Below are positions 2 through 21,427 of a stretch of DNA of 51,502 bases, piece after piece. Origin of the DNA: Bacteroidota bacterium (GTDB lineage: Bacteria; Bacteroidota; Ignavibacteria; UBA10030; UBA6906); assembly GCA_017860635.1 (NCBI GenBank), contig JAGDMK010000002.1, positions 1-51,502 on the forward strand, given 5' to 3'. The position numbers and the translations under genes are program-made. Under the pieces are notes generated by a model. The model worked only from the letters and a program-made list of their open reading frames with translations, searched no databases and was not told the DNA's origin. Positions within the stretch are counted from its first letter, which is position 1, and each line of letters begins with the position of its first letter.

Positions 2-847
2 CTGGAATATCCGACGGGATGGTACTACTGGTTGCCGCCGGTCGGAGGGAATGACGGAGAGCTGGGGAACGGGTTCGAGAACACGGTGGTGACGACGGAG
101 GCGGCGCACAGCGGATTGAATTCGCTGAAGTTCAACCTGCCGTTCAGCCGCCAGCCCCATGACGGGTTCGTCGGCATGCGGCGGGTCTCCCTCGGCAGCA
201 ACGCGAAAGTGGGGGATATCGTCCGGTTGACGGCCTGGCTGAAGGCAAGCAATCTGGTTCCGGACTCTGCAGCGTTGTATCCGGGGACCTGGTCAGTGGG
301 CTTGACGCCGCTCTGGTTTGCCAAGGGCGGGAACAACGACGGGTATGACGTGTTGCAGTCGAGTGACTACACGTGGCAGTTCCCGGCGGTGACGTCATTT
401 GACTGGACGCCATACACGCTGGATCTGCAGGTGCCGGCGAATGCGAAGGTGCTGGAGGTCCGTCTGCATGTGTATGCACGATTCACGGGCACGATCTACT
501 GGGATGATGTGTCAATCAGTGTGATCGGAAGCCTCACCTCTGCGGGTAAATCAAAGACCGAGATGCCGGTGTCGTATGAACTCGGTGACAACTATCCGAA
601 TCCGTTCAACCCTTCCACAAAGATACAGGTAGGGATTCCGGAAGCGGGCAACACGACGCTTGTCATCTATAATACGCTCGGTCAGACGGTCCGCACGGTG
701 ATGGATGAATACCGGGCAGCGGGCCGGTTTGAAGTCACGTGGGACGGCAAGGATGATACGGGCCGTACCGTCGGGACGGGTGTGTATCTGTACCGTCTTG
801 TGTCCGGCCAGACCTCATTGGTTAAGAAGATGATTCTTGTGAAGTAA
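2..847 (+). CDS. C-terminal part of a secreted protein with a CBM4/9-like carbohydrate-binding domain and a T9SS/FlgD-Ig C-terminal sorting domain (5' truncated by the window)
   Basis: Frame is open from base 2 (LEYPTGWYYW...). Jelly-roll CBM-like motifs (AHSGLNSLK, FDWTPYTLDLQVP, GTIYWDDVSI). Ends in NYPNPFNPST...IYNTLGQ...WDGKD...GVYLYRL...KKMILVK. Confidence 0.85.
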   Translation: MEYPTGWYYWLPPVGGNDGELGNGFENTVVTTEAAHSGLNSLKFNLPFSRQPHDGFVGMRRVSLGSNAKVGDIVRLTAWLKASNLVPDSAALYPGTWSVGLTPLWFAKGGNNDGYDVLQSSDYTWQFPAVTSFDWTPYTLDLQVPANAKVLEVRLHVYARFTGTIYWDDVSISVIGSLTSAGKSKTEMPVSYELGDNYPNPFNPSTKIQVGIPEAGNTTLVIYNTLGQTVRTVMDEYRAAGRFEVTWDGKDDTGRTVGTGVYLYRLVSGQTSLVKKMILVK

Positions 848-912: not shown

Positions 913-3609
913 ATGAGGACAAGCATTGTTGCGGGCCTCATCGCCGTGCTGTGCTATTCGGCGGTAGTATACGGCGGTACAACGGGCAAGATAGCCGGAA
1001 AGGTCACTGATGCCCAGACCGGCGAACCGCTTGTCGGCGTCAACGTTCTGGTTGTCGGCATGACGCTCGGTGCAAGCTCGGATATCGACGGCGAGTACTT
1101 CGTCTTGAATGTCCCTCCAGGAACCTACACCGTGAGGGCATCGGCGGTGGGGTATACCGCGATGACCGTCAATGCGGTGAAAGTCATGGTCGACCAGACA
1201 GTGCGCATCCCCTTCAGCCTGCAGCCCCAGACCGTCGAAATGAACGATGTGCTCATTACGGCTGAACGTCCGATCGTGCAGAAAGACCTCACATCCACGA
1301 CGGCTTCCGTCAGTGGCGAGGAGATTGCCTCGCTTCCGCTGGAGGACATTGCGTCTGTTGTGAACCTCCAGGCGGGAGTTGTGGACGGCCACTTCCGTGG
1401 CGGGCGATCCAACGAGGTGAAATATCTGATCGACGGGGTGTCGGTGAACGATGTCTTTTCAGGCGGGTTCACCCTCCAGGCAGAAGTGAACAGTATTGCG
1501 GAAGTGCAGGTGCTGAGCGGCACGTTCAATGCCGAATACGGCGAAGCAATGTCGGGTGTTGTCAACCAGGTCACGAAGATCGCCGGGGAACGGTACACCG
1601 GCGAAGTGTCTGCGTACGCCGGCGGATACATGACCGGCAGAACCGGGCTTTTTCTCGGCCGTGATGAGAAAGAGTTCCTCGGTTTTCTTCCCGAGCTCTA
1701 TTCAGGAGTGTACAACGTACAGGGAAGCCTGAGCGGTCCGGTGCCGGCCGTCCCGGAGCTTTTGCGGTTCTTTTTCTCCGGCCGCTATCTGGATGATAAC
1801 GGCTCCATATTCGGAACGCGCAAGTTCAACCCGCCGGATTCATCCGAGTTCTCGGCAAACGATCCCCGGGACTGGTTTGTCGGCGCGACTGGAGACGGGG
1901 CTGAAGTATCCATGAATTACTCCCGGCGCCTGACACTTCAGGGGAAGCTCGAAGCCAAGGTGGGAAGTGCGAAAGGGATTGTCCTGCAGGGCTTGTATCA
2001 GCAGACCAAATATCGTGAGTATGACCATGCCTTCCGCCTGAATCCGGACGGTGATTACCAGAGGATTCAGAAGAGCACGCTTCTCAGCGGGAGCTACACG
2101 CACGTGTTCGGTGAGTCCTCGTTTCTCGACGCAACGGCCTCGGCATTTCTGAGCGACTACAAGCAATACGTCTATGAAAACCCTCTCGACCCGCGGTATG
2201 TGAACCCGGAACGGCAGCAGGATGCCGGGGCCAATTCATTCCTTACCGGGGGAACGCAAAACTGGCACTTCAAGCATAACACAACGACGCTGACCGGCCG
2301 GTTGGACTACACCGCGCAGGTCACGCCGGTGCATCAGCTCAAGGCCGGCATTGACGGCCAGGTGCACACATTAGAATACTCGGATTTTCAGGTGCGGATT
2401 GACGCCTCAACGGGGTATCAGCCACAGATGCCGCCGGCGGGCAGCTTTGACTTCAACCAATACACCAACCATCCCTTCCAGTTTGCGGGATATGTCCAGG
2501 ACAAGATCGAACTGGAGTATCTCGTGGTCAATGTGGGAGTGCGGTTCGACTATTTCGAACCTGACGGAATGGTGCTGGTCAACCCGGACAGCATTGCTGC
2601 GCTTGATCGTATGCAGCCGCCTTACTCCGGACCGCTGTTTGCGAAGGCCAGTGCCAAGTACCAGTTCAGTCCCCGGGTGGGTCTTTCCTATCCTATTACC
2701 GATCGCGGAGCGGTGCATCTCTCCTACGGACATTTCTTCCAGGTGCCGGCCTTCTCGTACCTGTACAAGAACCCCAGTTTCCGCATCCCGCTCACCGGTA
2801 CATACCCGGAGTTCGTCGGCAATACGATCGGCAATGCCGACCTCGAGCCGCAGCGGACGACCATGTATGAGATCGGTCTTCAGCAGGAGCTGACGCCGAC
2901 CATAGGAGTAACGCTGACGGGGTACTACAAGGATATCCGGAATTTGCTCGGCCTGGAGATTCACATCAAGAACGACTTCAAGAAGTTCGGCAAGTATGTG
3001 AACCGGAACTACGGAGCGGTGCGCGGCATCACGCTTTCCTTTGAGAAGAGGCTCACCGACGGGTTCGGGACAAATGTGGACTACACCTATCAGATCGCGA
3101 AGGGTGACGCCTCGGATCCGAATGACGACTATAACAAAGCCCAGGCGAGTCCACCCATCGAGACCAACCGGTCCCTTGTGCCGTTAAGCTGGGACAGGCG
3201 GCATTCATTGAATGCAACGATCACGCTTGGCACACCCGACGATTTCATTGCCAGCCTGATTGGGCGCTTCGGATCCGGACTTCCCTATACACCGTCGCTG
3301 GTCAACCAGCGGACCGGACTCGAGAACAGTGACAACCGTCCCTCGTTCTACAACGTCGACTTGTATTGTACAAAGTATTTCACATTCAACGGGATGAATC
3401 TGTCGCTCTTTCTGAAGGTCTACAACCTGTTTGACACTGCAAACGAGTTGAACGTGTTCGGTGATACAGGGCGCGCCGGGTACACGCTGGAGCTCACGCG
3501 AGCGCAGGAAGCACCGCGGGGTGCGAACACGCTCGAGGAATACTACTCGCGGCCCGACTTCTACTCCTCGCCGCGGCAGGTCATGATCGGTGCAGCGCTG
3601 GGGTTCTGA
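913..3609 (+). CDS. TonB-dependent receptor with N-terminal carboxypeptidase-regulatory-like domain
   Basis: Signal peptide; GKIAGKVTDAQTGEPLVGVNV domain; plug motifs RGGRSNEVKYLIDG and GTFNAEYG; barrel motifs YVQDKIE, SPRVGLSYP, GNADLEPQRT; C-terminal Phe. Confidence 0.93.
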   Translation: MRTSIVAGLIAVLCYSAVVYGGTTGKIAGKVTDAQTGEPLVGVNVLVVGMTLGASSDIDGEYFVLNVPPGTYTVRASAVGYTAMTVNAVKVMVDQTVRIPFSLQPQTVEMNDVLITAERPIVQKDLTSTTASVSGEEIASLPLEDIASVVNLQAGVVDGHFRGGRSNEVKYLIDGVSVNDVFSGGFTLQAEVNSIAEVQVLSGTFNAEYGEAMSGVVNQVTKIAGERYTGEVSAYAGGYMTGRTGLFLGRDEKEFLGFLPELYSGVYNVQGSLSGPVPAVPELLRFFFSGRYLDDNGSIFGTRKFNPPDSSEFSANDPRDWFVGATGDGAEVSMNYSRRLTLQGKLEAKVGSAKGIVLQGLYQQTKYREYDHAFRLNPDGDYQRIQKSTLLSGSYTHVFGESSFLDATASAFLSDYKQYVYENPLDPRYVNPERQQDAGANSFLTGGTQNWHFKHNTTTLTGRLDYTAQVTPVHQLKAGIDGQVHTLEYSDFQVRIDASTGYQPQMPPAGSFDFNQYTNHPFQFAGYVQDKIELEYLVVNVGVRFDYFEPDGMVLVNPDSIAALDRMQPPYSGPLFAKASAKYQFSPRVGLSYPITDRGAVHLSYGHFFQVPAFSYLYKNPSFRIPLTGTYPEFVGNTIGNADLEPQRTTMYEIGLQQELTPTIGVTLTGYYKDIRNLLGLEIHIKNDFKKFGKYVNRNYGAVRGITLSFEKRLTDGFGTNVDYTYQIAKGDASDPNDDYNKAQASPPIETNRSLVPLSWDRRHSLNATITLGTPDDFIASLIGRFGSGLPYTPSLVNQRTGLENSDNRPSFYNVDLYCTKYFTFNGMNLSLFLKVYNLFDTANELNVFGDTGRAGYTLELTRAQEAPRGANTLEEYYSRPDFYSSPRQVMIGAALGF

Positions 3610-3645
3610 CAGCATCTGTTCGAGCCCGTGCAAGGTTCCACAGAG

Positions 3646-6600
3646 ATGAGGCTTCCCATGCTGTTTACTCTTCGATTCTATCGCCGGCTTGCGATCCTGC
3701 TGGTCCTCCTTTGCGCCGGGACACTGTTTTGTACGGGTCAGTACATTGTGGACAAGACAAAAGGCCAGCACGGGGAGACCAAAAAGGGATACATGGACGG
3801 CAACCTCGTCGGTACCGTGTACTACAATTTCGGCGAGGTAGCGGACTGGCAGAATGAACCGACCCGGAGCGGCGTGTGGCCCAAAGGGACCAACCACACG
3901 TATGTCGACGGTGTGGCCATGATTGTACAGGCAGAGACATCTGCACCTGATCCCGCGAATCCCTCCAACACGGTCACGTTCCATCCGCTCGAGACGAATT
4001 ACTATGAGTACACACGGTACGACAGGAGCACTGGCGTAACCTATGGGTGGTGGCCGCTGCCGGGGTATGCAGCCCGATTCCAATCGAGTCCCGCGGTGAG
4101 CAACGACCCGTCAACCTGGCCGCCGCACTGGCCAGACCGCCCGAATACCTGGGACGGATACTGGAGCGGGTACTTTGGCAAGGGGGTCCTCAATGCCGAC
4201 CTCGAAACGTACTTCGTCTACGATGATAACGAGGATCGTGAATATCTCCTCCGCTATAACTACAGACCGGATGCCGCCGATACGTCGCGCGGAGGACTTG
4301 GCATGCAAGTGCGGGCCCGGGGATTCCAGTGGTCGCAAGTCCTTGCCGAAGACGTGATCTTCTGGCACTACGAAATCTCCAACATGTCCAGCACGGACTA
4401 CACGCGAACGCTGTTCGCGCAGTACGTAGACTGGGGCATCGGAGGGCACGACAACTCATCAAACAATGCCGGGGATTACAACAAGCTGCTGAACATCTCG
4501 TACGCCTGGTCCACGGTCTCGCGCGGCAACCCCGGGAACTGGAGCCCCGTCGGTCTTTCGGGATACGCCTTCCTGGAAAGCCCGGGCCTCGCCAACGACG
4601 GTCGCGACAACGATCTTGACGGACTCACGGAAGAACGGCGCGACAATACCGCGAACCTGTTCATCAAGGAGCCATCCCAGGATCCGTTCCTGCGGGATGT
4701 GCTGAAGGACACCGCCCAGTTCCGCGTTTTCTACGGGGTCGACTGGAAGCCCCACTGGGATGCCGACGAGAACGGCAACTGGCGGTCCTTCGACGATGTC
4801 GATGCAAATGGCACCTGGGAAAACGGAGAGCCTCTCAACGATGACGTCGGCTCCGATGGCATCGGTCCGCTGGATGACGGCTACCTGGGTCCGGATCTGA
4901 ACGGCTCGGAGGGGAACGGCAGGCCGGATCAGGGCGAGCCGAATTTCGGCATCCTGGACAAGGACGAATCCGACCAGCTCGGGTTGACCGGATTTTTGAT
5001 TTCGGCAGTGCACACGTATGATCTGAATGACGACGAGCGGAACTGGAAGGCTCTATCGGCGTTGCCGGAGCCGCACGGCGGCGAGCTGGTCGGTGTCAAC
5101 CTGGCCAACCATTTCTCAAGCTACCTCTTCCGGCTCCTGGGCAGAAATTCATATGCTGCGCAGACGGGCACCATCGAAGAAACCGGCGCTACGGAACGCT
5201 TCTCCATGGCATTGATCTTCGGCATGGACGTGGACGACCTCTTCCGGCGGAAGCGGACGGTGCAGCAGATCTACAACGCCAGCTACCGGTTTGCCAAACC
5301 GCCCGAGAAACCCGTCGTGAAGGCGATTCCGGGCGACGGGCGCGTGATCCTCTACTGGGATGACCGTGCCGAGCGCACCTTTGACGCGTTCTATCAGAAG
5401 TACAATTTCGAAGGATACCGGGTGTATCGCAGCACCGACGCGAACTTCATGGAAAGCAAGATCATCACCGACGCATACGGAAAGGCGACGTATCGCAAGC
5501 CGCTTGCGCAGTTTGATCTTGTCGACGGCGTGCAGGGGCTCCATCCAATCAACGTCAACGGCGCGCTGTTCCATCTCGGCGACGAGACTGGACTCCAGCA
5601 CTCGCTCATCGATTCAAGCGTCCAGAACGGGCAGACGTACTACTATGCCGTGGTGTCGTACGATCAGGGCTTCACCACGACAACAATCGAGCAGGATTTC
5701 CTCGGCATTCCTCCTTCCGAGTGCACCAGCATCATCAAGGTCGATATCAACGGACAGGTAAAGACCGACATCAATACGGCCGTTGTCGTCCCGCGCCCGC
5801 CCGCGGCAGGCTACGTGGCAGCGCGGCTTCCCATCGTGGAGGTCACCGGTCCTGGCACAGGCACCGTGACGGCGGATATTCTGGATCCGGATTCTCTGCG
5901 TTCCAACCACACATACAAGATCGGATTCGTCGACTCGACGGCGTTCCACACAGCGGCCAATCCGTACTACTTCCTCACGGACATGACGACGGGAGACACG
6001 CTGATCACGCCGCGGCGCATGCCGGCACGAAAGGTCACCACGCCGGTAATGCACGGGTTCAGCGTGACAATGCAGAACGATCCAGCCGTAGAAATTGACC
6101 GGAACAAATCGGGCTGGAAGACGGGAAAGACGACCTATGTCACGGAAGCGGGATTCAACACCGCATTCGGACAGGGAGCTCTTGCCCTGCGCAGAGTGGA
6201 CTACCCCGCAGATTTCGAGATCCGCTTCACGAATCCCGGCAAGGGCACCATTGCACTTCCGCGGTCCACGTTCTCAAACCCTAATCCCTCGAACGTTGTC
6301 ATCAAGAACCTGACCGAGAACCGGGACAGCATCGCGCTGGTGTTCTTCGACGAGAATGCGAACGAAGTTCTGGACCCCGGCGAGGCAATCTTTATTGCCG
6401 TGGGTGACTCGGCAGGAAAACCTGCGCCGTCGTTCCGCGATGCGCGGTTCACCTGGTCCCTTGCGTTCACAAAGGACACGCTGATTGCCGAGGCGGACCA
6501 GCGTGCGCCTCAGCCGGGCGACGTGTACCTGATTTCGACACGGAAGCCGTTCCGTACAGGCGAGTTCACGGGGTTTCAGGCTCAATCGCAGCAGTACGAT

Positions 6601-6933
6601 GCAGCAAAAGCCCAATCGGACCTCGCCAATGTAGCAGTGGTACCCAACCCGTATGCCGGTGCGGCCTCATGGGAACCTGCCACAACATCTGTGGGGCGCG
6701 GGGAACGGCGCATCTTTTTTATTCACCTCCCGCGCGAGTGCACGATCAGGATCTACACGATGGCAGGCCGTCTTGTGCAGACCATTCAACATGTCTCATC
6801 GCTTGCCGACGGACAGACGTCATGGAACCTGGTGTCGCGTGACGGTATGGATGTCGCCTATGGCGTGTATGTGTACCATGTCGATGCGCCCGGCGTGGGG
6901 ACCACCGTCGGCAAATTCGCCGTTCTAAAGTAG
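3646..6933 (+). CDS. Large secreted uncharacterised protein with DxDxDG-type loops, an FN3-like domain and a divergent T9SS-like C-terminal domain
   Basis: Hydrophobic N-terminus; DNDLDG, DADENG, DVDANG loops; FN3-like segment AIPGDGRVILYWD...FEGYRVYRS...YYYAVVSYD; C-terminus VVPNPY...IRIYTMAG...WNLVSRDG...GVYVYHV...KFAVLK. Start uncertain (3628/3646/3658). Confidence 0.8.
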   Translation: MRLPMLFTLRFYRRLAILLVLLCAGTLFCTGQYIVDKTKGQHGETKKGYMDGNLVGTVYYNFGEVADWQNEPTRSGVWPKGTNHTYVDGVAMIVQAETSAPDPANPSNTVTFHPLETNYYEYTRYDRSTGVTYGWWPLPGYAARFQSSPAVSNDPSTWPPHWPDRPNTWDGYWSGYFGKGVLNADLETYFVYDDNEDREYLLRYNYRPDAADTSRGGLGMQVRARGFQWSQVLAEDVIFWHYEISNMSSTDYTRTLFAQYVDWGIGGHDNSSNNAGDYNKLLNISYAWSTVSRGNPGNWSPVGLSGYAFLESPGLANDGRDNDLDGLTEERRDNTANLFIKEPSQDPFLRDVLKDTAQFRVFYGVDWKPHWDADENGNWRSFDDVDANGTWENGEPLNDDVGSDGIGPLDDGYLGPDLNGSEGNGRPDQGEPNFGILDKDESDQLGLTGFLISAVHTYDLNDDERNWKALSALPEPHGGELVGVNLANHFSSYLFRLLGRNSYAAQTGTIEETGATERFSMALIFGMDVDDLFRRKRTVQQIYNASYRFAKPPEKPVVKAIPGDGRVILYWDDRAERTFDAFYQKYNFEGYRVYRSTDANFMESKIITDAYGKATYRKPLAQFDLVDGVQGLHPINVNGALFHLGDETGLQHSLIDSSVQNGQTYYYAVVSYDQGFTTTTIEQDFLGIPPSECTSIIKVDINGQVKTDINTAVVVPRPPAAGYVAARLPIVEVTGPGTGTVTADILDPDSLRSNHTYKIGFVDSTAFHTAANPYYFLTDMTTGDTLITPRRMPARKVTTPVMHGFSVTMQNDPAVEIDRNKSGWKTGKTTYVTEAGFNTAFGQGALALRRVDYPADFEIRFTNPGKGTIALPRSTFSNPNPSNVVIKNLTENRDSIALVFFDENANEVLDPGEAIFIAVGDSAGKPAPSFRDARFTWSLAFTKDTLIAEADQRAPQPGDVYLISTRKPFRTGEFTGFQAQSQQYDAAKAQSDLANVAVVPNPYAGAASWEPATTSVGRGERRIFFIHLPRECTIRIYTMAGRLVQTIQHVSSLADGQTSWNLVSRDGMDVAYGVYVYHVDAPGVGTTVGKFAVLK

Positions 6934-6946
6934 GAGGAGAGAGCGT

Positions 6947-7987
6947 ATGACCTCATTGCGAAGTGTGCTCCTTCTTGTCGTACTTGTGTTGCCGGCTGCG
7001 GCGTGCGCACAACCGGGCTCCCAGGAAGTGGCCAAAACGGGTACGGTGGCTGCACCGTTCCTCGAGATCCCTGCCGGGGCCGCGGCCATGGGCATGGGCA
7101 CGGCGTTTGTCAGCATCGCCAACGATGCGTCGGCGCTCTACTGGAATCCCGCGGGCGCAGCTCTCTTCACACAGAACGAAATCGTTGCGAACCACATGAC
7201 ATGGATCGCGGACACGCGGTTCGACTTTGCTGCGCTCGCCATCCCGTTGGGCGACGTCGGGACGTTTGGCCTGAGCTTCACCTCACTCTCAATGGACGAC
7301 ATGAAGGTCCGGACGGTAGACCAGCCCGAAGGGACCGGCGAGTATTTCAGCGCGGGGGACATCGCTGCCGGACTCTCCTATGCTCGGCAACTGAGCGAAC
7401 GCTTCTCGGTGGGGTTCACAGTCAAGTATATCCAGCAGAGCATCTGGCACGAATCGGCCAGCGCATTTGCGCTCGACATCGGAACGCTGTTCCGCACGGA
7501 TCTCCTCGGCGGACTGGTGGTCGGCGCCTCCCTGTCGAACTTCGGCACATCGATGCGGCTCGACGGACGCGATACGCGCCAGTTCGGCCGTGTGGATGAT
7601 ACCAAACTCGGTTCCAATGACCAGATTCCTTCGACCATCGAAATGGAATCCTGGGATCTGCCGTTGTTGTTCCATCTCGGTCTCTCCTTCAACCCCGTGA
7701 AGGACGACGAGTATCGCTGGACGGTGGCAGTCGATGCGCTTCATCCGAGCGACGACTATGAGAGCCTGAGTGTGGGCACGGAGCTGGCCTTCCGCGAATT
7801 CCTGTGCGTACGTGCCGGATACCATTCGCTCTTCCTCGACGAGGCAGAAGGAGGATTGGCGCTGGGCTTCGGGCTCACGTCGTCAATGCTCTTCTCGTCC
7901 ATGACGATTGTGCGACTGGACTACGCATACAACGACATGGGCCGGCTGGGAGGCGTCAACATGATCTCACTGGGGATACGGTTTTGA
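6947..7987 (+). CDS. PorV/PorQ-family (UPF0164, FadL-like) outer-membrane beta-barrel
   Basis: Signal peptide; family motif FLEIPAGAAAMGMG.AF...ANDASALYWNPAG; alternating beta-strands; C-terminal LGIRF; SD aggagga. Confidence 0.88.
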   Translation: MTSLRSVLLLVVLVLPAAACAQPGSQEVAKTGTVAAPFLEIPAGAAAMGMGTAFVSIANDASALYWNPAGAALFTQNEIVANHMTWIADTRFDFAALAIPLGDVGTFGLSFTSLSMDDMKVRTVDQPEGTGEYFSAGDIAAGLSYARQLSERFSVGFTVKYIQQSIWHESASAFALDIGTLFRTDLLGGLVVGASLSNFGTSMRLDGRDTRQFGRVDDTKLGSNDQIPSTIEMESWDLPLLFHLGLSFNPVKDDEYRWTVAVDALHPSDDYESLSVGTELAFREFLCVRAGYHSLFLDEAEGGLALGFGLTSSMLFSSMTIVRLDYAYNDMGRLGGVNMISLGIRF

Positions 7988-8021
7988 CCGGCTCCGCACG
8001 ACTCGTCTGGCTATTGCGCTG

Positions 8022-9632
8022 ATGCGAGCCCGCTCCCCGCGGAGCCCATTGCTCCTCGCGGCGTTCCTCTTCTGGTTCGGCGGACCTGCGACGGCCCAGG
8101 AGCAGGACCTGCGCACGCTGCTTTCCCCCGATCCGCTGGATACTGCTGTGGCCAACACGGTCGTGGCCCGCGTCGGCCCCGCATCCATCACGGCCCGGGA
8201 ATTCTTCTTCAATTATCTGTTCGGGCCATCATTCGTGAAGAAACGGCCGGACTCACGGCGGCGGCACCTCGATTTCATGCTTCACGAAAAACTCCTGGCA
8301 CTCGGCGAAGAGGCAAAGGGAAAAATTCAGGACCGCCGCGTTGAAGAGAACCTCCTGGCCGTGGAGGGAGATGTTGCGACAGAAGAACTCTATCGCGACG
8401 ATGTGTTGAGCCGGGTCCGCGTGACAGAACAAGAGATCGACTCAGCCGTACACCGGCAGAGTGTCGAAGTGAGCATGCGCTGGCTGTACGCACGGGAGGA
8501 ACAGGATGCCCGCACCCGGAGCCAGGCACTCCGGAACGGGGCTTCGTTCGACTCACTGTTCTTCATGCAGTTCAGCGACAGCAACCTTCAACGTGACGAC
8601 CGCATGATGCGGACAACCCTGTTCGGGTTGATGCAGCGCAACGGTGCGATGAGCCGGATTGCAGAAGGTCTTTCCGCGGGAATGCCGTCAGGCCCGGTGA
8701 GGGGGGCGGACGGCTGGTACATCCTCCAGGTCGATTCGCTCTGGACAAACGTCATCACCACAGGATCTGCAGATGCTGAAATGCGGCTGAGCGCCCTCCG
8801 CGCGGTCACGCAGATGAACGCTGACAGCATCTCCGACGCCTACATCCGGCAAATGATGCTCGATGCCGACCCCGTCATCCAGCGCCGGACGTTGGACATT
8901 CTCCGTGCGCACCTCGGGGAAAGAGTGCTGACGCCAGAGACATTCACGGCCTGGGATCTGGCGGGGCGTTTCCGTGCAGAACAGTCGCCTGTGGATTACG
9001 CTTATGTGGAACAGCATGAGGAAGATGTGCTTGTGACCCTGCGCGGGAAAACGATTACGCTCGGCCAGTTCCTCCGGTGGTACAGAATGCGGGAGACCGC
9101 CCTGAAACTCCGGTTGACCTCTCCGCAGGCGTTCTTCCTCTCTCTGGAAGATCTTGTGTGGCGCATGGTTCGTGATGAATTGCTGGTGGAGCGGGCCAGA
9201 AACCGCCGCCTGCACGAACGCCCGGAAGTGAGTACACAAGTCCGGTGGTGGAAAGACAAGCTGCTCTATCAGGTGGCGAAGGATTCGCTGCGGAGGGCGA
9301 TCGGTTGGACTGACTCCACGCTGCAGGCGTACTACGCGGCACATCCTCGCTCTTTCCAGGACAGCAGCGGCAACGTTCTCCCGTTCGGGTTCGTGCGGGA
9401 TGACGTTCTGCGCGAATGGTACGCCCTGACGCTCTCGGAACGCATTGTCCGTCGTCTCGCAGAGTTGCGGCGTCAATTTCCGGTCACCGTTGATGAAGAC
9501 GCTCTCAAGCGCATTCCTGTGGATGCAGAGAACAACCCGCGCGCCATCGACATTGTTGCGGCCAAAAAAGGGGGCACGTTCCCGCGCCCGGCGTTCCCAA
9601 CTATCGATCCGTTCTGGCAGACCTGGCAATAG
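8022..9632 (+). CDS. Periplasmic SurA/PrsA/PpiC-like chaperone (peptidyl-prolyl isomerase-like)
   Basis: Signal peptide; VVARVG..ITAREF; helical SurA-N-like regions; parvulin-like LRNGASFDSL...G.PSGPVRGADGWYILQV. Confidence 0.7.
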   Translation: MRARSPRSPLLLAAFLFWFGGPATAQEQDLRTLLSPDPLDTAVANTVVARVGPASITAREFFFNYLFGPSFVKKRPDSRRRHLDFMLHEKLLALGEEAKGKIQDRRVEENLLAVEGDVATEELYRDDVLSRVRVTEQEIDSAVHRQSVEVSMRWLYAREEQDARTRSQALRNGASFDSLFFMQFSDSNLQRDDRMMRTTLFGLMQRNGAMSRIAEGLSAGMPSGPVRGADGWYILQVDSLWTNVITTGSADAEMRLSALRAVTQMNADSISDAYIRQMMLDADPVIQRRTLDILRAHLGERVLTPETFTAWDLAGRFRAEQSPVDYAYVEQHEEDVLVTLRGKTITLGQFLRWYRMRETALKLRLTSPQAFFLSLEDLVWRMVRDELLVERARNRRLHERPEVSTQVRWWKDKLLYQVAKDSLRRAIGWTDSTLQAYYAAHPRSFQDSSGNVLPFGFVRDDVLREWYALTLSERIVRRLAELRRQFPVTVDEDALKRIPVDAENNPRAIDIVAAKKGGTFPRPAFPTIDPFWQTWQ

Positions 9633-9639
9633 AGGGTTC

Positions 9640-10938
9640 ATGAAATTTGTGAGCGTCACAGTACTGATGCTGTGCCTGATCGCCGGATGTGCGGACCAGG
9701 GGAAATCCCCGGACGGCGGCGGGGGTGCGGTCGAGTTGACCTACTGGCCTGCACCGAATCCGCAGGAGATCCAGCTGGCAGACACGCTGGTCCGGCGCTG
9801 GAACGCGCTGCATCCTGAATGCCTCGTGCGCATGCAGCCCATACCGGTCAGCCAGTCCACCGAAGAAGTGCTGCTGGCAGCCATCGCTGGAGGGACAACC
9901 CCGGACATCTGTTCGAACATTCAACCCGGTGCCCTGTATGATTTTGTCCGTGCCCGGGGTCTCCTGCCGCTCGACCAATTCCCCGGTTTCGATTCCATCG
10001 CTCTCGAGCGGGCAGGAGCAGAACTCCTGCAGACGTTCCGGAGTCCGGACGGTCACATCTATCAGCTACCGTGGAAGTCCAACCCTGTCATGATGTTCTA
10101 CAACAAGCGGCTGCTGCGGGAGGCGGGGATCGCAGGGCCGCCGCGCACGTTCAACGAATATCTTGCCGCGGGAAGACGCGTCACGAAGGATACCACCGGC
10201 GATGGGCAGACAGATATCTGGATGGGCGAACGGGACATCCGGCCGATCTGGTGGCAACGCCTTTTTGACTTCTACCCATTCTACATTGCTGCCTCATCAG
10301 GGCGCACGCTGTTTGCCAACGGCCAGCTTGCCCTCGATGAGCGTGCTGCAGCCGAAGTGCTGGCGTTCTTCCGCACCTGTTATGGTGAAGGCATTTATCC
10401 ACGGACCTTCTTCCAGGCCGGTGATCCGTTTCTGCTGGAGATGAAAGCGACGCACTTCTCCGGCCCGTGGGAAGTGGCCACCATCAGGAAGTTTGCGCCG
10501 ACCATGGACTACGGAGTTGCTCCGCTGCCGGTTCCGGATGATGTCACCGGACCTGTCTATACCTATGGTGACTTCAAAAACATCGCCATCTTCAGCACGT
10601 CACAGCATCCTGAAAAGGCATGGGAATTTGTCAGGTATCTTGTGCGTGCCGAACACGATCTGCTCCTCCTTCAGCTCTGTGACCAGATACCGGTACGCAC
10701 GGACCTTGTCACGAATCCCCTTTTTGCCGGATACTTCCGTGCAAACCCGGTGATGGCGGAGTTCGGCAGGCAGCTCCAGCATATTCGGGGCATTGATACC
10801 GCACCGGACCTGAAGGAAATCTTTGACACACTTTCGCAGATTTATGAAGCAAGCGCAGTGTACGGATCGACAGAACCGCAGGACGCCGTGCGCGAGATTG
10901 TCCGGCGGACGAACATCATTGTGGAGTGGAACCGGTGA
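9640..10938 (+). CDS. Sugar ABC transporter substrate-binding lipoprotein (SBP_bac_1)
   Basis: Start re-assigned to the ATG at 9640 (MKFVSV...LIAGC lipobox); motifs AGGTTPDI, GHIYQLPW, MFYNKRLL, GPW, HPEKAWEFVRYL. Confidence 0.92.
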   Translation: MKFVSVTVLMLCLIAGCADQGKSPDGGGGAVELTYWPAPNPQEIQLADTLVRRWNALHPECLVRMQPIPVSQSTEEVLLAAIAGGTTPDICSNIQPGALYDFVRARGLLPLDQFPGFDSIALERAGAELLQTFRSPDGHIYQLPWKSNPVMMFYNKRLLREAGIAGPPRTFNEYLAAGRRVTKDTTGDGQTDIWMGERDIRPIWWQRLFDFYPFYIAASSGRTLFANGQLALDERAAAEVLAFFRTCYGEGIYPRTFFQAGDPFLLEMKATHFSGPWEVATIRKFAPTMDYGVAPLPVPDDVTGPVYTYGDFKNIAIFSTSQHPEKAWEFVRYLVRAEHDLLLLQLCDQIPVRTDLVTNPLFAGYFRANPVMAEFGRQLQHIRGIDTAPDLKEIFDTLSQIYEASAVYGSTEPQDAVREIVRRTNIIVEWNR

Positions 10939-11831
10939 ACGGACGTGCATCAGGATTGCGTGACAGGTTCCGCCGGAGCAATCGGAGTGCCTACGGCCTC
11001 GTGCTTCCGTATGTCATCTTCTTCCTTGCCTTCGTGGCGTATCCGCTGACCTTCTCGTTGCTCCTGGTCTTCCACCGGTGGAACATCGTCACGCCAATGG
11101 AATGGATTGGACTGAAGAACTTCACCCGGCTTCTGGAGGACCCGCTGTTCTACGCATCCCTGCTCAACACGCTGGTCTTCCTGCTTCTCCACATCCCGCT
11201 GCAGGTTGTTGTGGCACTCGGCTTTGCGCTTCTCCTCAATTCCCGGATCCCGGGACGGGGATTCTTCCGCGCCGTGTATTTCATGCCGGTAGTGGTCTCA
11301 GGCGTTGTGGTGACCATTCTGTGGCAGCAACTCTACTCGTTCGACAACGGGCTGCTGAACGGCATGCTGCGTGCTGTTGGGATTGGCCCGGTTCCGTGGC
11401 TTGTGGATCCGCGGATTGCCATGCCCGCCATTGCGCTGATGGCCACGTGGAAGAATGTCGGCATCTACATTGTCCTGTTCCTTGCAGGACTGCAAACTAT
11501 CCCGCGTGAGCTCTATGATGCCGCAAGTGTCGACGGTGCCACACCGGCGCGCCAGTTCCTGCACATCACGCTGCCAATGCTTAACCCGACCATGGTCGTG
11601 ATCGTCGTGCTCTCCACAATCGGAGGATTCTCACTGTTCATCGAACCGTACGTGCTGACCGGCGGCGGGCCGATGCAGAGCACGCTTTCAGGAATGTTGT
11701 ACATCTACAACCAGGGATTCTATTTCAATCATATGGGATATGCCGCGACGCTGGGCTTCGTCTATGCCATGATCATCCTCCTGATCGTGCTTCTCCAGAG
11801 GAGGCTCATCGGACGGGAGCAGACTGCATGA
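10935..11831 (+). CDS. Sugar ABC transporter permease (MalF/UgpA type)
   Basis: Six TM helices; EAA loop LQTIPRELYDAASVDGA...ITLPML; GTGA overlap with the upstream stop. Confidence 0.93.
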   Translation: MNGRASGLRDRFRRSNRSAYGLVLPYVIFFLAFVAYPLTFSLLLVFHRWNIVTPMEWIGLKNFTRLLEDPLFYASLLNTLVFLLLHIPLQVVVALGFALLLNSRIPGRGFFRAVYFMPVVVSGVVVTILWQQLYSFDNGLLNGMLRAVGIGPVPWLVDPRIAMPAIALMATWKNVGIYIVLFLAGLQTIPRELYDAASVDGATPARQFLHITLPMLNPTMVVIVVLSTIGGFSLFIEPYVLTGGGPMQSTLSGMLYIYNQGFYFNHMGYAATLGFVYAMIILLIVLLQRRLIGREQTA

Positions 11832-12637
11832 AGACGTTCTTCCGGTACATCATCTTGCTGGTCGGTGCAGTGATCTTCGCCTATCCGTTTCTCTGGATGA
11901 TTGCGGGATCGTTCAAGCCCGAACTGGAGATACGCGGATTCGGCCTCTGGTCTGAACAGTTCTCGCTGCACAGCTATCACACTGTGCTGACCAAGATTCC
12001 CATCGGCCGCGCGTTGCTCAACAGTCTGATCGTGTCAGGAGCCACCACTGCGTCGGTGATTCTTTTTGGCTCCATGGTCGGGTATGCGCTTTCAAGACTT
12101 ACGTTCGTCGGTGGAAAGGCCCTGTACACGCTCATCCTTATCACGATGATGATACCGTTCCAGATTGTCCTGATTCCTCAGTACATCCTCATGGTGAAGC
12201 TCGGGTGGACAGATTCATACCTGGGCCTGGTTGCACCGACGATGATGAGCGCGTTCAGCATCATTCTGTTCCGGCAGTTCTTTATGGCAATACCGCAGGG
12301 CTTGATCGACGCGGCCCGGCTTGACGGGGCCTCAGATCTGACAATCCTCTTCCGCGTCATCTGGCCCCTCTCGCGGCCGGTGATGGTTACCGTGGCCATC
12401 CTGACATTTATGACCAGCTGGAATGAAGTCCTCTGGCCGCTGCTCGTGGTGCGGGAACGTTCTCTGATGACTATGCCCCAGATCGTGACGATCTTCACCA
12501 CTGGCGGGGAGGCCGAAGCGCAGCTCGGTTCGCTCCTCGCGGCTGCAACACTGCTGGCGCTGCCGATAATCGTCGCGTATGCATTCTTCCAGAAGTACTT
12601 CATTGAGAGCATGGCCACGACCGGCTTGAAAGGCTGA
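11828..12637 (+). CDS. Sugar ABC transporter permease (MalG/UgpE type)
   Basis: FRQFFMAIP..LIDAARLDGAS EAA motif; WNEVLWPLL; FFQKYF..G; ATGA overlap. Confidence 0.93.
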   Translation: MKTFFRYIILLVGAVIFAYPFLWMIAGSFKPELEIRGFGLWSEQFSLHSYHTVLTKIPIGRALLNSLIVSGATTASVILFGSMVGYALSRLTFVGGKALYTLILITMMIPFQIVLIPQYILMVKLGWTDSYLGLVAPTMMSAFSIILFRQFFMAIPQGLIDAARLDGASDLTILFRVIWPLSRPVMVTVAILTFMTSWNEVLWPLLVVRERSLMTMPQIVTIFTTGGEAEAQLGSLLAAATLLALPIIVAYAFFQKYFIESMATTGLKG

Positions 12638-12639: not shown

Positions 12640-15201
12640 ATGACACGGGTATTCGGGTGTACGCTGCTGATCCTCTTCTGTGCCTGGCAGGCTGCCGGAC
12701 AATCCCCGTACGGCTGGGAGGAAGGCTGCGCCGTGCGGTTTGCCGGCAGGTACGGGCAGGTCGAAGCCGGCGGTCCCCTCGCCGGAATCGAATGTCACGA
12801 CAGCCGGCCGCTACTGTCACGTGTGAGTCTCTATGCTCCCGTTGCGAACAGCATCGATCTGAGCACGGACTATTGGAAACGCGGCGACTCGCGACCCTTC
12901 GTTGTTGGCGTCAGGCTGGACCAGCAACAGAAGCGGTGGCTGGGGAAGGAGCCCTGGGAGTACGTGGCATCGCCGCATGCCGTGCGTTTTGAGAGAACGG
13001 AAGGCGATCTCAGGTACACGATCCGGTACGACTTCGGCAGCCGGCTGGCAGCCGTGGTCATGACGATCGGCGTTGTGAACACCGGGAGCGCACCACACCA
13101 CCTGGAAATGTATACGCATATGAGTCTGGTGCTCCGCTCCTGCCAGACCTATGCAAGAATTGCGGCGGCACAAACACAGTTCGACCGCCGCCACCATGCC
13201 ATCCTCGGGTTGTTCGATGATCCGCGCGTCGCACGGGCTGCTGTGATCGTGCAGAATGCCGGGCTTGCCCCGTCGGCCTGGACGTCAAGCGGCGAGGAGC
13301 TTGGGGTGCAGGATTCCGGCTGGTCAAACTGGATCGAACGCGAAGACGCTCCTGCCTCCACGCTGTTGCGGTCAGCGAAAAGCCGGCACCCTGTGGCCGC
13401 GTTCACATATCGCTTCTCGATTCCTCCGAGAGATTCGACCGCAATTGTTCAACTCGTGAGCAGCGTTCCCGGGAAGGATGCGGAAAAGGCGATTGTCAGC
13501 GCCGCGAAAGACTGGAGGAAAGATGTTGCCCTCTACAGGACGGCCGTGCGCCAGGCGGCGTACGGCGGTGCGGGCTTCCAATCCGGTCATGCATGGACCG
13601 ACAGCTCGGTTGCCTATTCCCGCGCACTTCTCGAGGCCAATCAGCACTACCTCAACGGTGCAATTGTCCCTATGCCCTGTCCGGCCGAGTACAATTTCTT
13701 CTTCACACACGATGTATTATTGACCTGTCTCTCGGCGATTGCGTTCGATCCCGGTCGCGTAAGGCGGGATCTGCTCTCTATTGCCGGCCATGCGAAGGGG
13801 AGAGTGATCCCGCATGCATATTACTGGAAGGACGACGGGTTCAAGACAGAATACTGCAGCCCCGGCAACTGGAACAACATGTGGTTTATCCTCGCAACCG
13901 CCAGTTATCTCCGTCACACCATGGACACAACAGCAGTCCAGCGCCTGTACCCGCTGCTTACAAAGAGTCTGGAGCAGACGCTGTCCAGACGATCGGGGAA
14001 TGTCATGCACGGCACCGAGCCGGACTGGTGGGACTTCGGACATGCCGTCGGTGCACGCGCCTATCTGACCGTTCTGACGATCAGGGCGCTGGAGGAATAT
14101 GTGTTCGTCTCTGCGTGGCTGCGGAAGAACCTTCCCCGGCTGGGAGGCTACGAGGCCATGGCCTCCGGGTTGCGCGACGGGCTTATGACGGATCTGTGGG
14201 ATGAGTCCTCCGGCTACCTTCTGAACACAATCGGACCGGAGCGTGACCGGCACATCTACATGGGAGCGTTGCTGGCGGCGGTCTTTGGCCAACTTCCAGA
14301 TGCGAATGCACAGCGGCTTGTGGCCACAGCCAGGACTATGCTGGTGGACTCCGGCATTGGCATTCGTACCGTTTCCCCTGCGGATTTCCACACCGATTCC
14401 GTGAAGAGTCTGTACAAAGTGAAAGGGAACGAAGCGGGGAATCCATTCACGTACGCGAACGGAGGCGTGTGGTACCTCGGCAACGCCTGGTATGCCCGGG
14501 CTCTCAGGTCGACCGGCGATGCCGAAGGGTCATTTGACTTCTTCGCGCGGACGATGACCGTGGACGGTATCGTGCAGAGTCCCTGCGGGCAACCCGCATT
14601 GTACGAATACCGGTACGCGAATCCGGATGCGGCAAATCATGGATGGATTGACAAGCCGACCATGATGTGGTCAGCGGGCTTCTGTATCGGCACCGCATAT
14701 CTGCTCGCGGGCCTGGAGGATAACATCTGGAACGTGACAGCAGCTGGCAAAGCTGCGAGGGCTCTGGAACATGTGCGATGCACGTATGCCTTCGGCGGCC
14801 GCAAGTCAGTGGAACGGCGGGGCAGTGGTCCCATGCTGATACGCATGCTGGCCGATGCAAAGGAAATCCCGTCGCGCATCCTTCCGCTCGACGCCAGAGG
14901 CGCAACGTCTCTCACCGTCGATATGGGAGCCATCCGGCATCCGTTTCTGGACAGCGTGAATGCGATACTTCACGCTGCTTCGCTCGATCCGGATGCGAAA
15001 GTCCTGCGGTTTGTACTTTCATCCTTCGACGACCACCTGACAACGGTGAAAGTGATCACCCCCTGGCTTGCACGGTCCGTCACCATCAACGGTGGGGCGT
15101 GGAAGGACTGGGCTGTGACTTCAACACCCACAGGGACTCTCGTGGTGACAGTCCGGTACGGGGCTTCCGAAGGCGCAGATACTGTTGAGATTCGTTTCTG
15201 A
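12640..15201 (+). CDS. Exported six-hairpin (alpha/alpha)6 glycosidase-like protein, family unassigned
   Basis: Signal peptide; N-terminal beta-sandwich, then a helical domain with FFTHD, DLWDESSGY, GIRT and YANGGVW motifs reminiscent of GH63/GH94/GH133-type enzymes. Confidence 0.65.
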   Translation: MTRVFGCTLLILFCAWQAAGQSPYGWEEGCAVRFAGRYGQVEAGGPLAGIECHDSRPLLSRVSLYAPVANSIDLSTDYWKRGDSRPFVVGVRLDQQQKRWLGKEPWEYVASPHAVRFERTEGDLRYTIRYDFGSRLAAVVMTIGVVNTGSAPHHLEMYTHMSLVLRSCQTYARIAAAQTQFDRRHHAILGLFDDPRVARAAVIVQNAGLAPSAWTSSGEELGVQDSGWSNWIEREDAPASTLLRSAKSRHPVAAFTYRFSIPPRDSTAIVQLVSSVPGKDAEKAIVSAAKDWRKDVALYRTAVRQAAYGGAGFQSGHAWTDSSVAYSRALLEANQHYLNGAIVPMPCPAEYNFFFTHDVLLTCLSAIAFDPGRVRRDLLSIAGHAKGRVIPHAYYWKDDGFKTEYCSPGNWNNMWFILATASYLRHTMDTTAVQRLYPLLTKSLEQTLSRRSGNVMHGTEPDWWDFGHAVGARAYLTVLTIRALEEYVFVSAWLRKNLPRLGGYEAMASGLRDGLMTDLWDESSGYLLNTIGPERDRHIYMGALLAAVFGQLPDANAQRLVATARTMLVDSGIGIRTVSPADFHTDSVKSLYKVKGNEAGNPFTYANGGVWYLGNAWYARALRSTGDAEGSFDFFARTMTVDGIVQSPCGQPALYEYRYANPDAANHGWIDKPTMMWSAGFCIGTAYLLAGLEDNIWNVTAAGKAARALEHVRCTYAFGGRKSVERRGSGPMLIRMLADAKEIPSRILPLDARGATSLTVDMGAIRHPFLDSVNAILHAASLDPDAKVLRFVLSSFDDHLTTVKVITPWLARSVTINGGAWKDWAVTSTPTGTLVVTVRYGASEGADTVEIRF

Positions 15202-15392
15202 GCAACCCATGTTCCGGAACGCCCGCTGTTGCGGCAGGCGATCCGGTGCAGGGCTCATGGCGGCCATGAAAGACGTCTGAGACCTGGGAGGACGTTCTCC
15301 GGAAGTGTGCGTGTACAGGTTTCGTCGCAGATGAATTCGCCGGCGCGGGACAGCCGGGTGAGGGCCAACACTAGCAGGAGGGTTCGCATCTC

Positions 15393-16403
15393 ATGAAGGC
15401 AGCTCTCTACAGAGGCCGGCATATTCTGGATGTCGTCACGCACGACCTCCGTCCGTTGCGGGTGGATGAAGTGCTCATCGATGTCGAGGCATGCGGTGTT
15501 TGCGGAACAGATGTGCATATCGTGGAAGGCACGTCGCGCTCAAACCCTCCGGTGGTACTGGGACACGAGTATGCCGGCAGGATTGTTGACAGAGGCAGGA
15601 ATGTCTCATCGCACACGGAAGGCGAGCGGGTTGCGGTCGATCCCAACATCGCCTGCGGAGAATGTGCCTACTGTAGAAAAGGACTTGTCCACCTTTGTTC
15701 CTCGCTGCGCGCGCTCGGAGTGGACATTGACGGGGGAATGGCGGAATACAGCATTGTGCCGGCGGCGCAGTGCTACACATTGGGAGAGGAGATAGCGCCC
15801 GAGGTCTGTGCCTTTGTTGAACCGGTCTCGTGCGCGGTTCATGGCATCGACAAAGCGCGGATAGCAACCGGCGACGCGGTCGTCATCATCGGGGGTGGGC
15901 CAATCGGCCAGATCATGCTGCAGCTGGCCCGCGTAGCGGGAGCGGCATTTACCACACTGGTCGAGCCGGTCGCTGAGAAGCGAGCGCTTGCGGCAGCAAG
16001 CGGAGCTTCCCGGGTTATCGATCCGAGGGAGGTGGACGTCGCAGAGGCAGTACAGGGAGATCTTCCGGAAGGTGCGGATGTCGTCATTGAGTGTGCAGGT
16101 CTCCCGGCAACGGCGGAACTGGCTCTGAAGCTCGCCCGCAGGGGCGGAACCGTGGAATTTTTCGGCGTATGTCCCCTGGGAAGCACTCTCCCGCTGGAAC
16201 CGAACCAGGTGTATTTCAAAGAGCTTACCATCGTGGGTTCCTATATCAATCCGCACACATTCAGCCGTGCCATCGCGCTTCTTCAACAGGGAAGGGTGAC
16301 GGTGAAGGACTTCTCCATGGCCCGTTTTCCCGTGGATGGTGTGCACGAAGCCCTCCGGCATCACCGGGAAAGTCTGTCATTAAAAAGCATCATCATTCCT
16401 TGA
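15393..16403 (+). CDS. Zinc-dependent medium-chain alcohol/polyol dehydrogenase
   Basis: CGTD and GHE catalytic Zn motifs; CGECAYC...C structural Zn; GGGPIG Rossmann motif; SD aggagg. Confidence 0.92.
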   Translation: MKAALYRGRHILDVVTHDLRPLRVDEVLIDVEACGVCGTDVHIVEGTSRSNPPVVLGHEYAGRIVDRGRNVSSHTEGERVAVDPNIACGECAYCRKGLVHLCSSLRALGVDIDGGMAEYSIVPAAQCYTLGEEIAPEVCAFVEPVSCAVHGIDKARIATGDAVVIIGGGPIGQIMLQLARVAGAAFTTLVEPVAEKRALAAASGASRVIDPREVDVAEAVQGDLPEGADVVIECAGLPATAELALKLARRGGTVEFFGVCPLGSTLPLEPNQVYFKELTIVGSYINPHTFSRAIALLQQGRVTVKDFSMARFPVDGVHEALRHHRESLSLKSIIIP

Positions 16404-16600
16404 ATGCCCGCGTGAAAACACCATCAGGCGATACATCGGGGGCGAATGAGCTTGTCCCAAGGACTTCAAATGCCCACCGTCTGCGGAACCAGCCCGTCCG
16501 CCGGATGCCATGCCTGAACGGAAATCGCCAGCGTTGGCGTTCCACCTGGAGGCAGTGTTCCGTGCCGTGGTCGTTCTTCCATTGGCAGCGGTGTCTCGTC

Positions 16601-21183: not shown

Positions 21184-21196
21184 GTATCATCAGGTC

Positions 21197-21427
21197 CTCA
21201 CCAACGGTGAATACCCGCGCCGGCATTCCGGCGCGAACAGTATCTCGTGAACGATCCTTGATGAGTCAAGAAGCTCACCAACGGTGAATACCCGCGCCGG
21301 CATTCCAGCGCGAACAGTATCTCGTGAACGATCCTTGATGAGTCAAGAAGCTCACCAACGGTGAATACCCGCGCCGGCATTCCGGCGCGAAGAGCATCTC
21401 ATGAGCAGTCCTCGAAGAGTCAAGATG
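21197..21427. repeat. Three tandem copies of a 77-bp palindrome-rich intergenic unit (REP/BIME-like)
   Basis: Units start at 21197, 21274 and 21351 with ctcaccaacggtgaatacccgcgccggcattccggcgcgaa. Copy 2 differs from copy 1 by 1 nt; copy 3 differs at 9 of the last 36 nt. Confidence 0.95.

Follow-up and report, generated by a model that had tools for sequence, protein, structure and literature searches.

What captures glycans at the surface of a member of the Bacteroidota whose TonB-dependent receptor has no SusD beside it? Glycan uptake in this phylum is explained, and its loci are predicted, almost wholly by way of the SusC/SusD pair. The question is raised by the first 51,502 nucleotides of contig JAGDMK010000002.1 (Bacteroidota bacterium, class Ignavibacteria, GenBank assembly GCA_017860635.1), the whole stretch that was analysed and that is called the window below. 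At positions 913-9632, four co-directional genes separated by gaps of 18, 13 and 34 nt stand at the head of a sugar locus, as the original prediction, made from the letters of the DNA alone, had described them (with gaps of 13-36 nt). They encode a TonB-dependent receptor, a large middle protein (here BIG), a barrel of the PorV/PorQ family and a parvulin-like protein. The first three recur as a triad in this genome and in its relatives, and the region would represent one copy of a three-gene outer-membrane uptake module which, together with the parvulin-like gene, heads a putative LacI-controlled, mannoside-type operon. Our answer, which we favour by a modest measure, is that the triad constitutes a module for nutrient capture independent of SusD, with a surface protein that is exported by type IX secretion (through the T9SS) and held on a PorV-like barrel of its own.

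The receptor has an N-terminal CarboxypepD_reg-like domain, a plug (PF07715, 28.7 bits against a cut-off of 23.9) and a TonB-dependent barrel (PF00593, 108.3 bits against 27). It does not belong to the SusC/RagA subfamily: with TIGR04056 it reaches 70.6 bits where the cut-off is 368.25, a match confined to model positions 2-116 (the N-terminal domain), and matches to solved structures are restricted to the N-terminal and plug parts. BIG, which follows it, matches 0 Pfam families at E<=0.01 and hence no SusD family, and the two SusD families PF07980 and PF14322 have 0 matches in the entire genome (3.94 Mb in 395 contigs, 88% complete). Because the contig begins at the first base of the window, the upstream side was checked in orthologous loci (C and L numbers are our handles for contigs and loci). 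No SusD lies upstream of the receptor in four of four (L075, L045, L035, L091); the gene found there encodes a protein of 860-1260 amino acids (aa) with a C-terminal domain (CTD) of the secreted kind and stands after a LacI-family regulator. The proposed lack of SusD behind the receptor holds, then, for the genome as far as it is complete and for these four loci.

When the six-frame open reading frames (ORFs) of the genome were queried with the four quartet proteins, the triad was found to recur approximately 13-15 times. Eighteen PorV-family genes exceed the family cut-off, 15 of which adjoin a receptor and/or a protein with the module-type CTD, giving 13 complete triads. The best-scoring of the 18 (310 bits) lies on C300 directly after PorU (598 bits) and is the housekeeping PorV, so that the barrel of the window is a private paralogue, as had been supposed. 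Triads are located on C104, C278, C322, C166, C371, C288, C292, C97, C130, C384, C81 and C48; on C183 the order is barrel-receptor-middle, and the copies on C228 and C353 are truncated by contig ends. The middle proteins span 590-1180 aa. A profile of the module receptor finds 17 ORFs with at least 415 bits, namely 13 in triads, two cut by contig ends, one without a middle gene (C352) and one standing alone (C57). The genome also encodes SprA, PorU and the canonical PorV, and contains at least 150 matches to type-A CTDs.

The company that the triads keep is varied: GH9 and GH3 glycoside hydrolases (GH) on C278, a GH63-like enzyme on C166, a PIG-L deacetylase on C288, GH18 and GHL10 on C81, BNR and GDSL proteins with a parvulin-like gene on C228, a heparinase/alginate-lyase-type gene with a dehydrogenase on C292, a hybrid sensor resembling hybrid two-component systems (HTCS) with GH31 on C48, and a LacI regulator on C353. 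The regulators beside the triads of the genome are of the LacI, RpiR or hybrid-sensor kinds. These neighbourhoods show the pattern of substrate-specific utilisation loci. Two of the contigs hold further genes of interest. On C352 (L136: 1-7452) the receptor gene stands directly before that of a PorV-family barrel, a middle CTD protein being absent, and the next genes encode an NHL-repeat protein and a 928-aa patatin-POTRA-Omp85 fusion; on C292 (L140: 5483-6970) a 495-aa ORF with weak PorV-family similarity and no Pfam family comes after the module barrel.

Beyond this genome, 71 orthologous loci were collected from Ignavibacteria-type genomes, including those of the cultured Rosettibacter primus and Melioribacter sp. 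OK-6-Me. Counting only loci with enough sequence on the relevant side, a PorV-family barrel follows the BIG orthologue in 60 of 61, a receptor precedes it in 57 of 58, a gene resembling a peptidyl-prolyl isomerase (PPIase) comes after the barrel in 56 of 57, and a sugar-binding protein gene is next in 54 of 55; the sole exception in all four counts is L099, where the large gene is broken. A profile of 13 module CTDs (alignment A3) matches every one of the 41 class genomes that were sampled. In a survey of five further genomes, each from a different family, the coordinates of CTD and PorV-family matches were compared by eye. Same-strand PorV-family genes lie within about 500 nt downstream of 21 of the 23 CTD matches of at least 60 bits; two of the remaining matches, weaker or partial and in proteins of about 700 aa, have one about 7 kb downstream instead of adjacent. 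In these two variants (G026:C15:73495-81421 and G028:C2:1027298-1035619) the CTD match is split or partial. A module-type receptor is found upstream in 20 of the 21 CTD-barrel pairs (20 regions), at L115 from a distance of 1.4 kb, and the pair without one sits 1.1 kb from a contig end. The five genomes carry approximately 9, 10, 1, 1 and 1 triads, and each has one PorV at 298-330 bits, which in two of them can be seen to come after a CTD-bearing frame of about 1330-1390 aa, presumably PorU. The barrel gene directly follows the CTD in 12 of 12 loci from a phylum search, two of them outside the class, and the same triad is present on a metagenome contig that shares 56% identity with a KSB1-labelled protein (a single locus, found by scan). 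The arrangement is far beyond chance and recurs as a unit in the genome and its relatives; the gene order is indeed conserved elsewhere, as the original prediction had expected.

The members of the unit also vary together. The distance matrices computed for the receptor, the head, the CTD and the barrel are correlated, both over this genome's 13 triads (Mantel r 0.72-0.83, p 0.0002) and over 28 triads from six genomes (r 0.75-0.91). Partial Mantel tests, in which L115 and the contig-cut triads C278, C371, C292 and C97 were left out, give head and receptor (0.65) and barrel and receptor (0.68) as the strongest pairs. By these sequence distances, the receptor, middle and barrel genes duplicate and diverge as one unit.

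What ties the middle protein to the barrel would be its C-terminus. All middle proteins of this genome end in a common domain of about 100 residues, in which a PNPY strand leads into a variable 15-25-residue loop, a type-A-like beta-sandwich and a terminal basic residue (alignment A3). The CTD of BIG weakly matches the final 100 positions of the model for PorZ (E 2e-5, the only notable NCBIfam match) and superposes on the PorZ CTD in 5m11_A (Z 11.7, root-mean-square deviation (rmsd) 2.4, 90 aligned, 31% identity). BIG has no match at E<=0.01 to the type-A models TIGR04183 and PF18962, whose alignment is interrupted by the extra loop that follows the PNPY strand, and three paralogous module CTDs pass the type-A model with 24-29 bits. 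At E<=0.01 the CHU_C/type-B family is not among the matches of BIG, nor PorP_SprF among those of the barrel, and the PorZ equivalog has no match over its cut-off in the genome. Comparison of sequence and structure points to the module CTD being a modified type-A, PorZ-like domain, nearer to the CTD of PorZ than to the generic model. The T9SS-like C-terminus that had been proposed stands, but the accompanying analogy to type-B cargo and PorP/SprF partners is inexact, PorZ-PorQ being the closer precedent.

The barrel belongs to the PorV/PorQ family (NF033709, 208.9 bits against a cut-off of 90; PF19572, 39 bits) and falls below the equivalog cut-offs for PorV (NF033710, 78.6 bits against 250), PorQ (NF033711, 83.3 against 220) and PorV2. 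Its profile matches the solved Flavobacterium johnsoniae PorV (6h3i_F, E 1.3e-12) and the 8gl series; the barrel itself matches BamG weakly (E 1.7e-4, 20.8 bits against a cut-off of 250). A complex was predicted from the barrel (alignment of 54 orthologues) and BIG residues 988-1101 (alignment of 102 sequences). The interface that had been anticipated was returned with a score of 0.91 (runs of 0.90, 0.91 and 0.91), against 0.00 for the best of three controls; of 80 solved complexes 58 attain the mark for this score, as do 2 of 110 mismatched pairs. At least 88% of the contacts are common to the runs, and the predicted local distance difference test (pLDDT) of the partner is at least 79. On the barrel, the predicted contacts involve a conserved N-terminal segment (28-41) and a series of loops on one face; on the CTD, they involve its PNPY strand and its final strands. 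Elsewhere, fusions join PorV-family barrels to Reg_prop beta-propellers (about 1046 aa) or TPR regions (P0301-P0308), which suggests a wider use of such barrels in anchoring large soluble domains to the membrane. The search for fusions yielded nine longer barrel proteins, with Reg_prop propellers or TPR, none of them fused to a receptor, a negative that is weak by nature.

The N-terminus of BIG reads as a signal for signal peptidase I rather than as a lipoprotein signal; its real start is probably at 3646 or 3658, and its Atlas record begins at residue 11. The AlphaFold2 model has a mean pLDDT of 89.4 and a predicted template modelling score (pTM) of 0.79, with a disordered loop at 1010-1024 in the CTD. 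Compared by VIA-align with 48,161 chains, residues ~45-555 (the head) match a galactose-mutarotase-like supersandwich, the closest relatives being dextran dextrinase (9ju0: Z 20.4, rmsd 3.2, 254 aligned), bacterial glucoamylase (1lf6: Z 19.1) and GH94 phosphorylases (Z 16-18), with GH116 and GH65 enzymes matching as well. This fold forms the carbohydrate-binding N-domains of GH15, GH94 and GH65 enzymes (Z 16-20 to the head), whose (alpha/alpha)6 catalytic domain is missing from the model of BIG. Asp-rich loops of the modelled head are probably calcium-binding, and an FN3-like domain and further beta-sandwiches (to about residue 985) join the head to the CTD. Foldseek, given the whole model, returned FN3/Ig chains only, with TM below 0.1, and so told nothing of use. 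Orthologues of BIG are 65-91% identical, and the family, unnamed and comprising 4267 representative clusters at E<=0.001, retains many invariant acidic and aromatic residues.

The second size class of middle proteins, of about 700 aa and represented by that of C81, is a separate large unnamed family (1317 matches at E<=1e-20 among scored candidates). By profile comparison (hhalign) it has the CTD alone in common with BIG, yet the folds agree: its model (pLDDT 89.3, pTM 0.85) has a head of the same type (8rf9: Z 19.1, rmsd 2.9, 250 aligned; 9ju0: Z 19.0; 1lf6: Z 18.7), and we rejected the idea that the heads of the two classes are unrelated. A supersandwich head, FN3 and the special CTD make up, in the models, the architecture common to both classes. 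In the ~700-aa class, a TIG/IPT-domain protein of 400-445 aa adjoins the barrel gene (C183 4871-6205, C81 4176-5375 and C48 26399-27646; L142, L145, L146) and may be a further surface component, comparable to SusE/F. Relatives of BIG are labelled Candidatus Marinimicrobia and candidate division KSB1. One protein in a cluster of such relatives, P0283, carries the label Methanosarcinaceae archaeon, which looks like a binning error given that this is a T9SS-type outer-membrane family.

The distribution of the module was surveyed in 151 genomes of the phylum, 37 in the class (this one included) and 114 outside it, with a CTD threshold of E<=1e-14. The module CTD is present in 85 of the 151 (36 of 37 in the class and 49 of the 114 outside it), and a class genome may have as many as 15 strong copies. 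SprA was found in 120; the module occurs in 85 of these and in none of the 31 SprA-negative genomes, all of which come from one family (f29). SusD is present in 8 of the 37 class genomes, with one or two matches each. Outside the class, SusD-rich families without the module exist (f30, 0 of 10 genomes with the module; f25, 1 of 9), as do families with both (f27, 4 of 4; f37, 17 of 22) and some with the module but no SusD (f28, 5 of 5 against 0 of 5). These distributions fit a T9SS-dependent system doing the job of SusD.

The sequence of events that we envisage is as follows. The middle protein, judging by its signal peptide, would cross the inner membrane by the Sec route and then be exported by the T9SS through its modified type-A CTD. 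The domain would stay uncleaved and be retained on the barrel encoded next to it, as PorZ is on PorQ, a step that the complex prediction supports, and the supersandwich head would thereby be held at the cell surface beside the co-encoded receptor. There it would capture glycan fragments released by the upstream-encoded T9SS-secreted protein, for the receptor to import. The gene context suggests that an ATP-binding cassette (ABC) system carries these over the inner membrane and that GH2 and GH130 enzymes complete their degradation. Middle protein and barrel would together fill the place of SusD and the surface glycan-binding lipoproteins of the Bacteroidia.

Several points weigh against this reading. 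Surface exposure, retention of the CTD and any contact with the receptor are elements that we infer. The distributions of SprA and SusD are confounded by phylogeny. Models of GldM/PorM (TIGR03517, PF12081) have no match in this genome at 88% completeness; for TIGR03517 the result is uninformative, its control having been blank everywhere. Peptidase genes (M14, S58) neighbour the triads on C322 and C384, and glycans may therefore not be the sole cargo. The weakest pair in the partial Mantel tests is CTD and barrel given the receptor (r 0.15); of the gene-tree congruence that had been proposed as a check, the correlation of distance matrices is seen, but the CTD-barrel pair is not singled out, so that the correlations mainly show joint duplication, not contact. 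Finally, the barrel profile matches a solved PorV, and resemblance to an already known mode of binding may therefore lie behind the complex score; some of the 6h3i and 8gl-series entries are presumably substrate-bound forms.

As a model, moreover, the predicted complex fits a stable dock or a transient shuttle, and a cognate or a non-cognate pair, alike. The best-placed alternative builds on this: the barrel would be a dedicated shuttle from the SprA translocon to PorU, where the protein loses its CTD by cleavage and is either released or attached to lipopolysaccharide; it would work near the receptor, with no stable complex with receptor or barrel. PorV is described as a shuttle for CTD cargo in the accessible text of PMC10202324, PorU is present, and three module CTDs pass the type-A cut-off. 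However, the canonical PorV beside PorU already serves at least 150 type-A cargos, and one adjacent, co-diversifying barrel per cargo (the 21 of 23 above) matches the way in which the retained pairs PorZ-PorQ and PorU-PorV are organised. According to the same portion of PMC10202324, PorU and PorZ do not lose their CTDs, which remain bound to PorV and PorQ, respectively, and cognate PorV-like barrels may shield a CTD from cleavage. With the module CTD nearest to that of PorZ, we regard a shuttle as unlikely, if deserving of attention.

The fold of the head leaves room for another role. Supersandwiches are also found in a GH174 endo-fucanase (Z 15.0, 246 aligned), in aldose epimerases and in YidC, and a fold shared at the level of models proves by itself neither function nor sugar binding. 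The middle protein could, on this evidence and on that of its many invariant acidic and aromatic residues and of the 65-91% identity of its orthologues, be a glycanase or lyase with a catalytic supersandwich, and the module would then couple surface depolymerisation to import. Its best matches, however, are the non-catalytic N-domains of GH15, GH94 and GH65 enzymes, the (alpha/alpha)6 domain is absent, no CAZy-type Pfam family is detected, and the loci encode separate secreted and periplasmic hydrolases; we think an enzyme quite improbable. Mere co-regulation of three independent proteins, or a non-import role such as envelope biogenesis or adhesion, might be argued from the other jobs that FadL-like barrels do (BamG binds a surface lipoprotein, in the accessible part of PMC12578637), from the weak barrel-BamG match and from the fusions of PorV-family barrels to propeller or TPR domains, but the receptor has a plug and a TonB-dependent barrel and the triads sit, in an order kept across classes, in catabolic loci with regulators and inner-membrane sugar transporters, which makes such explanations very improbable.

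We accordingly retain a SusD-independent capture module as the preferred reading. The original prediction is partly supported: its core holds, and none of the four contrary outcomes that it named (a gene order not kept elsewhere, no predicted interface, a barrel that is the single housekeeping PorV, a SusD just upstream) was found. The further idea that the middle protein acts as the lid of the receptor remains a conjecture. Going further, one might tentatively propose, although we consider it somewhat doubtful, that receptor, barrel and CTD protein form a stable three-part transporter whose surface cap is assembled by the T9SS, and that this has been the main glycan or nutrient importer of Ignavibacteria and several lineages of the Fibrobacterota-Chlorobiota-Bacteroidota (FCB) group, largely replaced by the lipoprotein-based SusCD in Bacteroidia.

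The fourth gene of the quartet stands apart from the triad. Its product has a signal peptide and a marginal Rotamase_2 match (28.7 bits against a cut-off of 27); the SurA_N family was not detected, and a PDB sequence search gave no match. In its Atlas neighbour clusters 65-70% of the members carry Rotamase_2, and a PpiD-like cluster ranks 19th. The notion of a private chaperone survives in that the gene is kept in the orthologous locus, but it is absent from the other 12 triads of the genome; the one distant homologue elsewhere in the genome is on C228 (E 7.5e-11), and only 1 of the 20 regions from other genomes has a homologue, upstream of the receptor. The gene is an accessory of the orthologous locus, not a defining part of the module, and its product is plausibly a periplasmic folding helper.

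Features of the quartet and its surroundings in the window
Feature	Coordinates	Strand	Size and basis
3' end of a large T9SS cargo gene with type-A CTD	2..847	+	TIGR04183 38.8 bits, FlgD_ig; truncated by contig start
TonB-dependent receptor, module subfamily	913..3609	+	898 aa; Pfam
BIG (middle protein)	3628..6933	+	1101 aa; without Pfam family; AlphaFold2 model
BIG head domain, residues ~45-555	3760..5292	+	VIA-align
BIG FN3-like domain, residues ~564-700	5317..5727	+	Secondary structure of the model, Foldseek FN3 chains
BIG module-type CTD, residues 1003-1101	6634..6930	+	Alignment A3, weak PorZ-model match, 5m11_A
PorV/PorQ-family barrel, 14-strand-type, private to the triad	6947..7987	+	346 aa; NF033709
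Parvulin-type PPIase-like protein (PpiD/SurA-like), secreted	8022..9632	+	536 aa; Rotamase_2, Atlas neighbours
ABC sugar importer: solute-binding protein and two permeases	9445..12637	+	SBP_bac_1/8, BPD_transp_1 (Pfam)
Catabolic part of the sugar locus	12640..26163	+	Pfam

The ORF of the solute-binding protein overlaps the end of the quartet, and its true start is probably after 9632. By Pfam, the catabolic part comprises a GDE_C-like protein, an alcohol dehydrogenase, a 628-aa protein, a LamG/CTD protein, a GH2 beta-mannosidase-type enzyme and two GH130 enzymes; an esterase gene also lies downstream of the quartet in the sugar locus. The 628-aa protein (16091-17977), without a Pfam family, is kept in orthologous loci, often directly 3' of the permease genes. 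At 27168-31865, the gene of a radical SAM/SPASM protein precedes those of two proteins (636 and 444 aa) without Pfam families; this may be a peptide-maturation cassette within the sugar locus. At 46203-49539 a glycyl-radical enzyme (PFL-like, 745.9 bits) adjoins its own radical-SAM activase. Two sediment metatranscriptome runs from one study contain contigs 90-99% alike to the locus, covering 25 and 28 of the 30 bins of window positions 1-12700, and single contigs span all three gene junctions. These contigs are short and come from relatives, and RNA libraries may contain DNA; we take them at most as a hint of expression.

How does the module compare with what is known? Like SusC/SusD loci, it has a receptor gene directly followed by that of a surface partner, many paralogous copies in substrate-specific, regulated loci and, in one triad, an HTCS-like regulator. 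Unlike SusD, the partner is a beta-rich supersandwich, not a helical TPR protein, and has a signal for signal peptidase I where SusD is a lipoprotein; the module further differs from SusC/SusD in needing a third gene, for the PorV-like barrel, and in having a receptor from outside the SusC/RagA subfamily. The 'CUT loci' of Proteobacteria are sugar loci with a TonB-dependent receptor and no SusD and, like the module, accomplish glycan import without it; unlike the module, they are not known to have an obligatory T9SS cargo or PorV-like barrel. PorZ-PorQ and PorU-PorV, as described in the accessible text of PMC10202324, resemble the module, which is known from genes and models, in that a T9SS substrate retaining its CTD is held by a PorV-like barrel, but those pairs are single-copy parts of the secretion machine, whereas the module pair has about 15 copies in this genome, coupled to a receptor in catabolic loci. 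SprB-SprF (type-B CTD with a PorP/SprF partner; same source, same portion) likewise has the genes for cargo and cognate barrel side by side; unlike it, the module has a type-A-like CTD and a PorV/PorQ-type barrel. In BamA-BamG-BamH, which the accessible part of PMC12578637 presents as having a 14-stranded FadL/PorV-like barrel tight against another barrel, with extracellular loops holding a surface protein, we see by analogy a structural precedent for a trio of receptor, barrel and surface protein; unlike the module, that complex, a beta-barrel assembly machinery, assembles outer-membrane proteins, and BamH is a lipoprotein, not a CTD protein.

All components of the module are thus of known kinds, and it is their conserved, multiplied combination that would be new. 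We found no description of a module of receptor, CTD protein and PorV-like barrel in the literature searched, which covered subscription journals to a small extent. The genome of M. roseus was reported to contain one SusCDE operon and many Por-tailed CAZymes, and the triad is not described in the accessible part of that report (PMC3534657).

Tools for the prediction of glycan-uptake loci that rely on the SusC/SusD pair would miss triad loci. A direct test of the proposed module is possible, since cultured Melioribacter and Rosettibacter strains carry the orthologous locus. If our reading is true, it would name the surface partner that the majority of TonB-dependent receptors have in Ignavibacteria and in related degraders abundant in the environment, and give a function to two large families of 'hypothetical' proteins, the BIG family and the ~700-aa class. 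PorV-like barrels would, besides, be seen to have a second use, in many copies, as private anchors.

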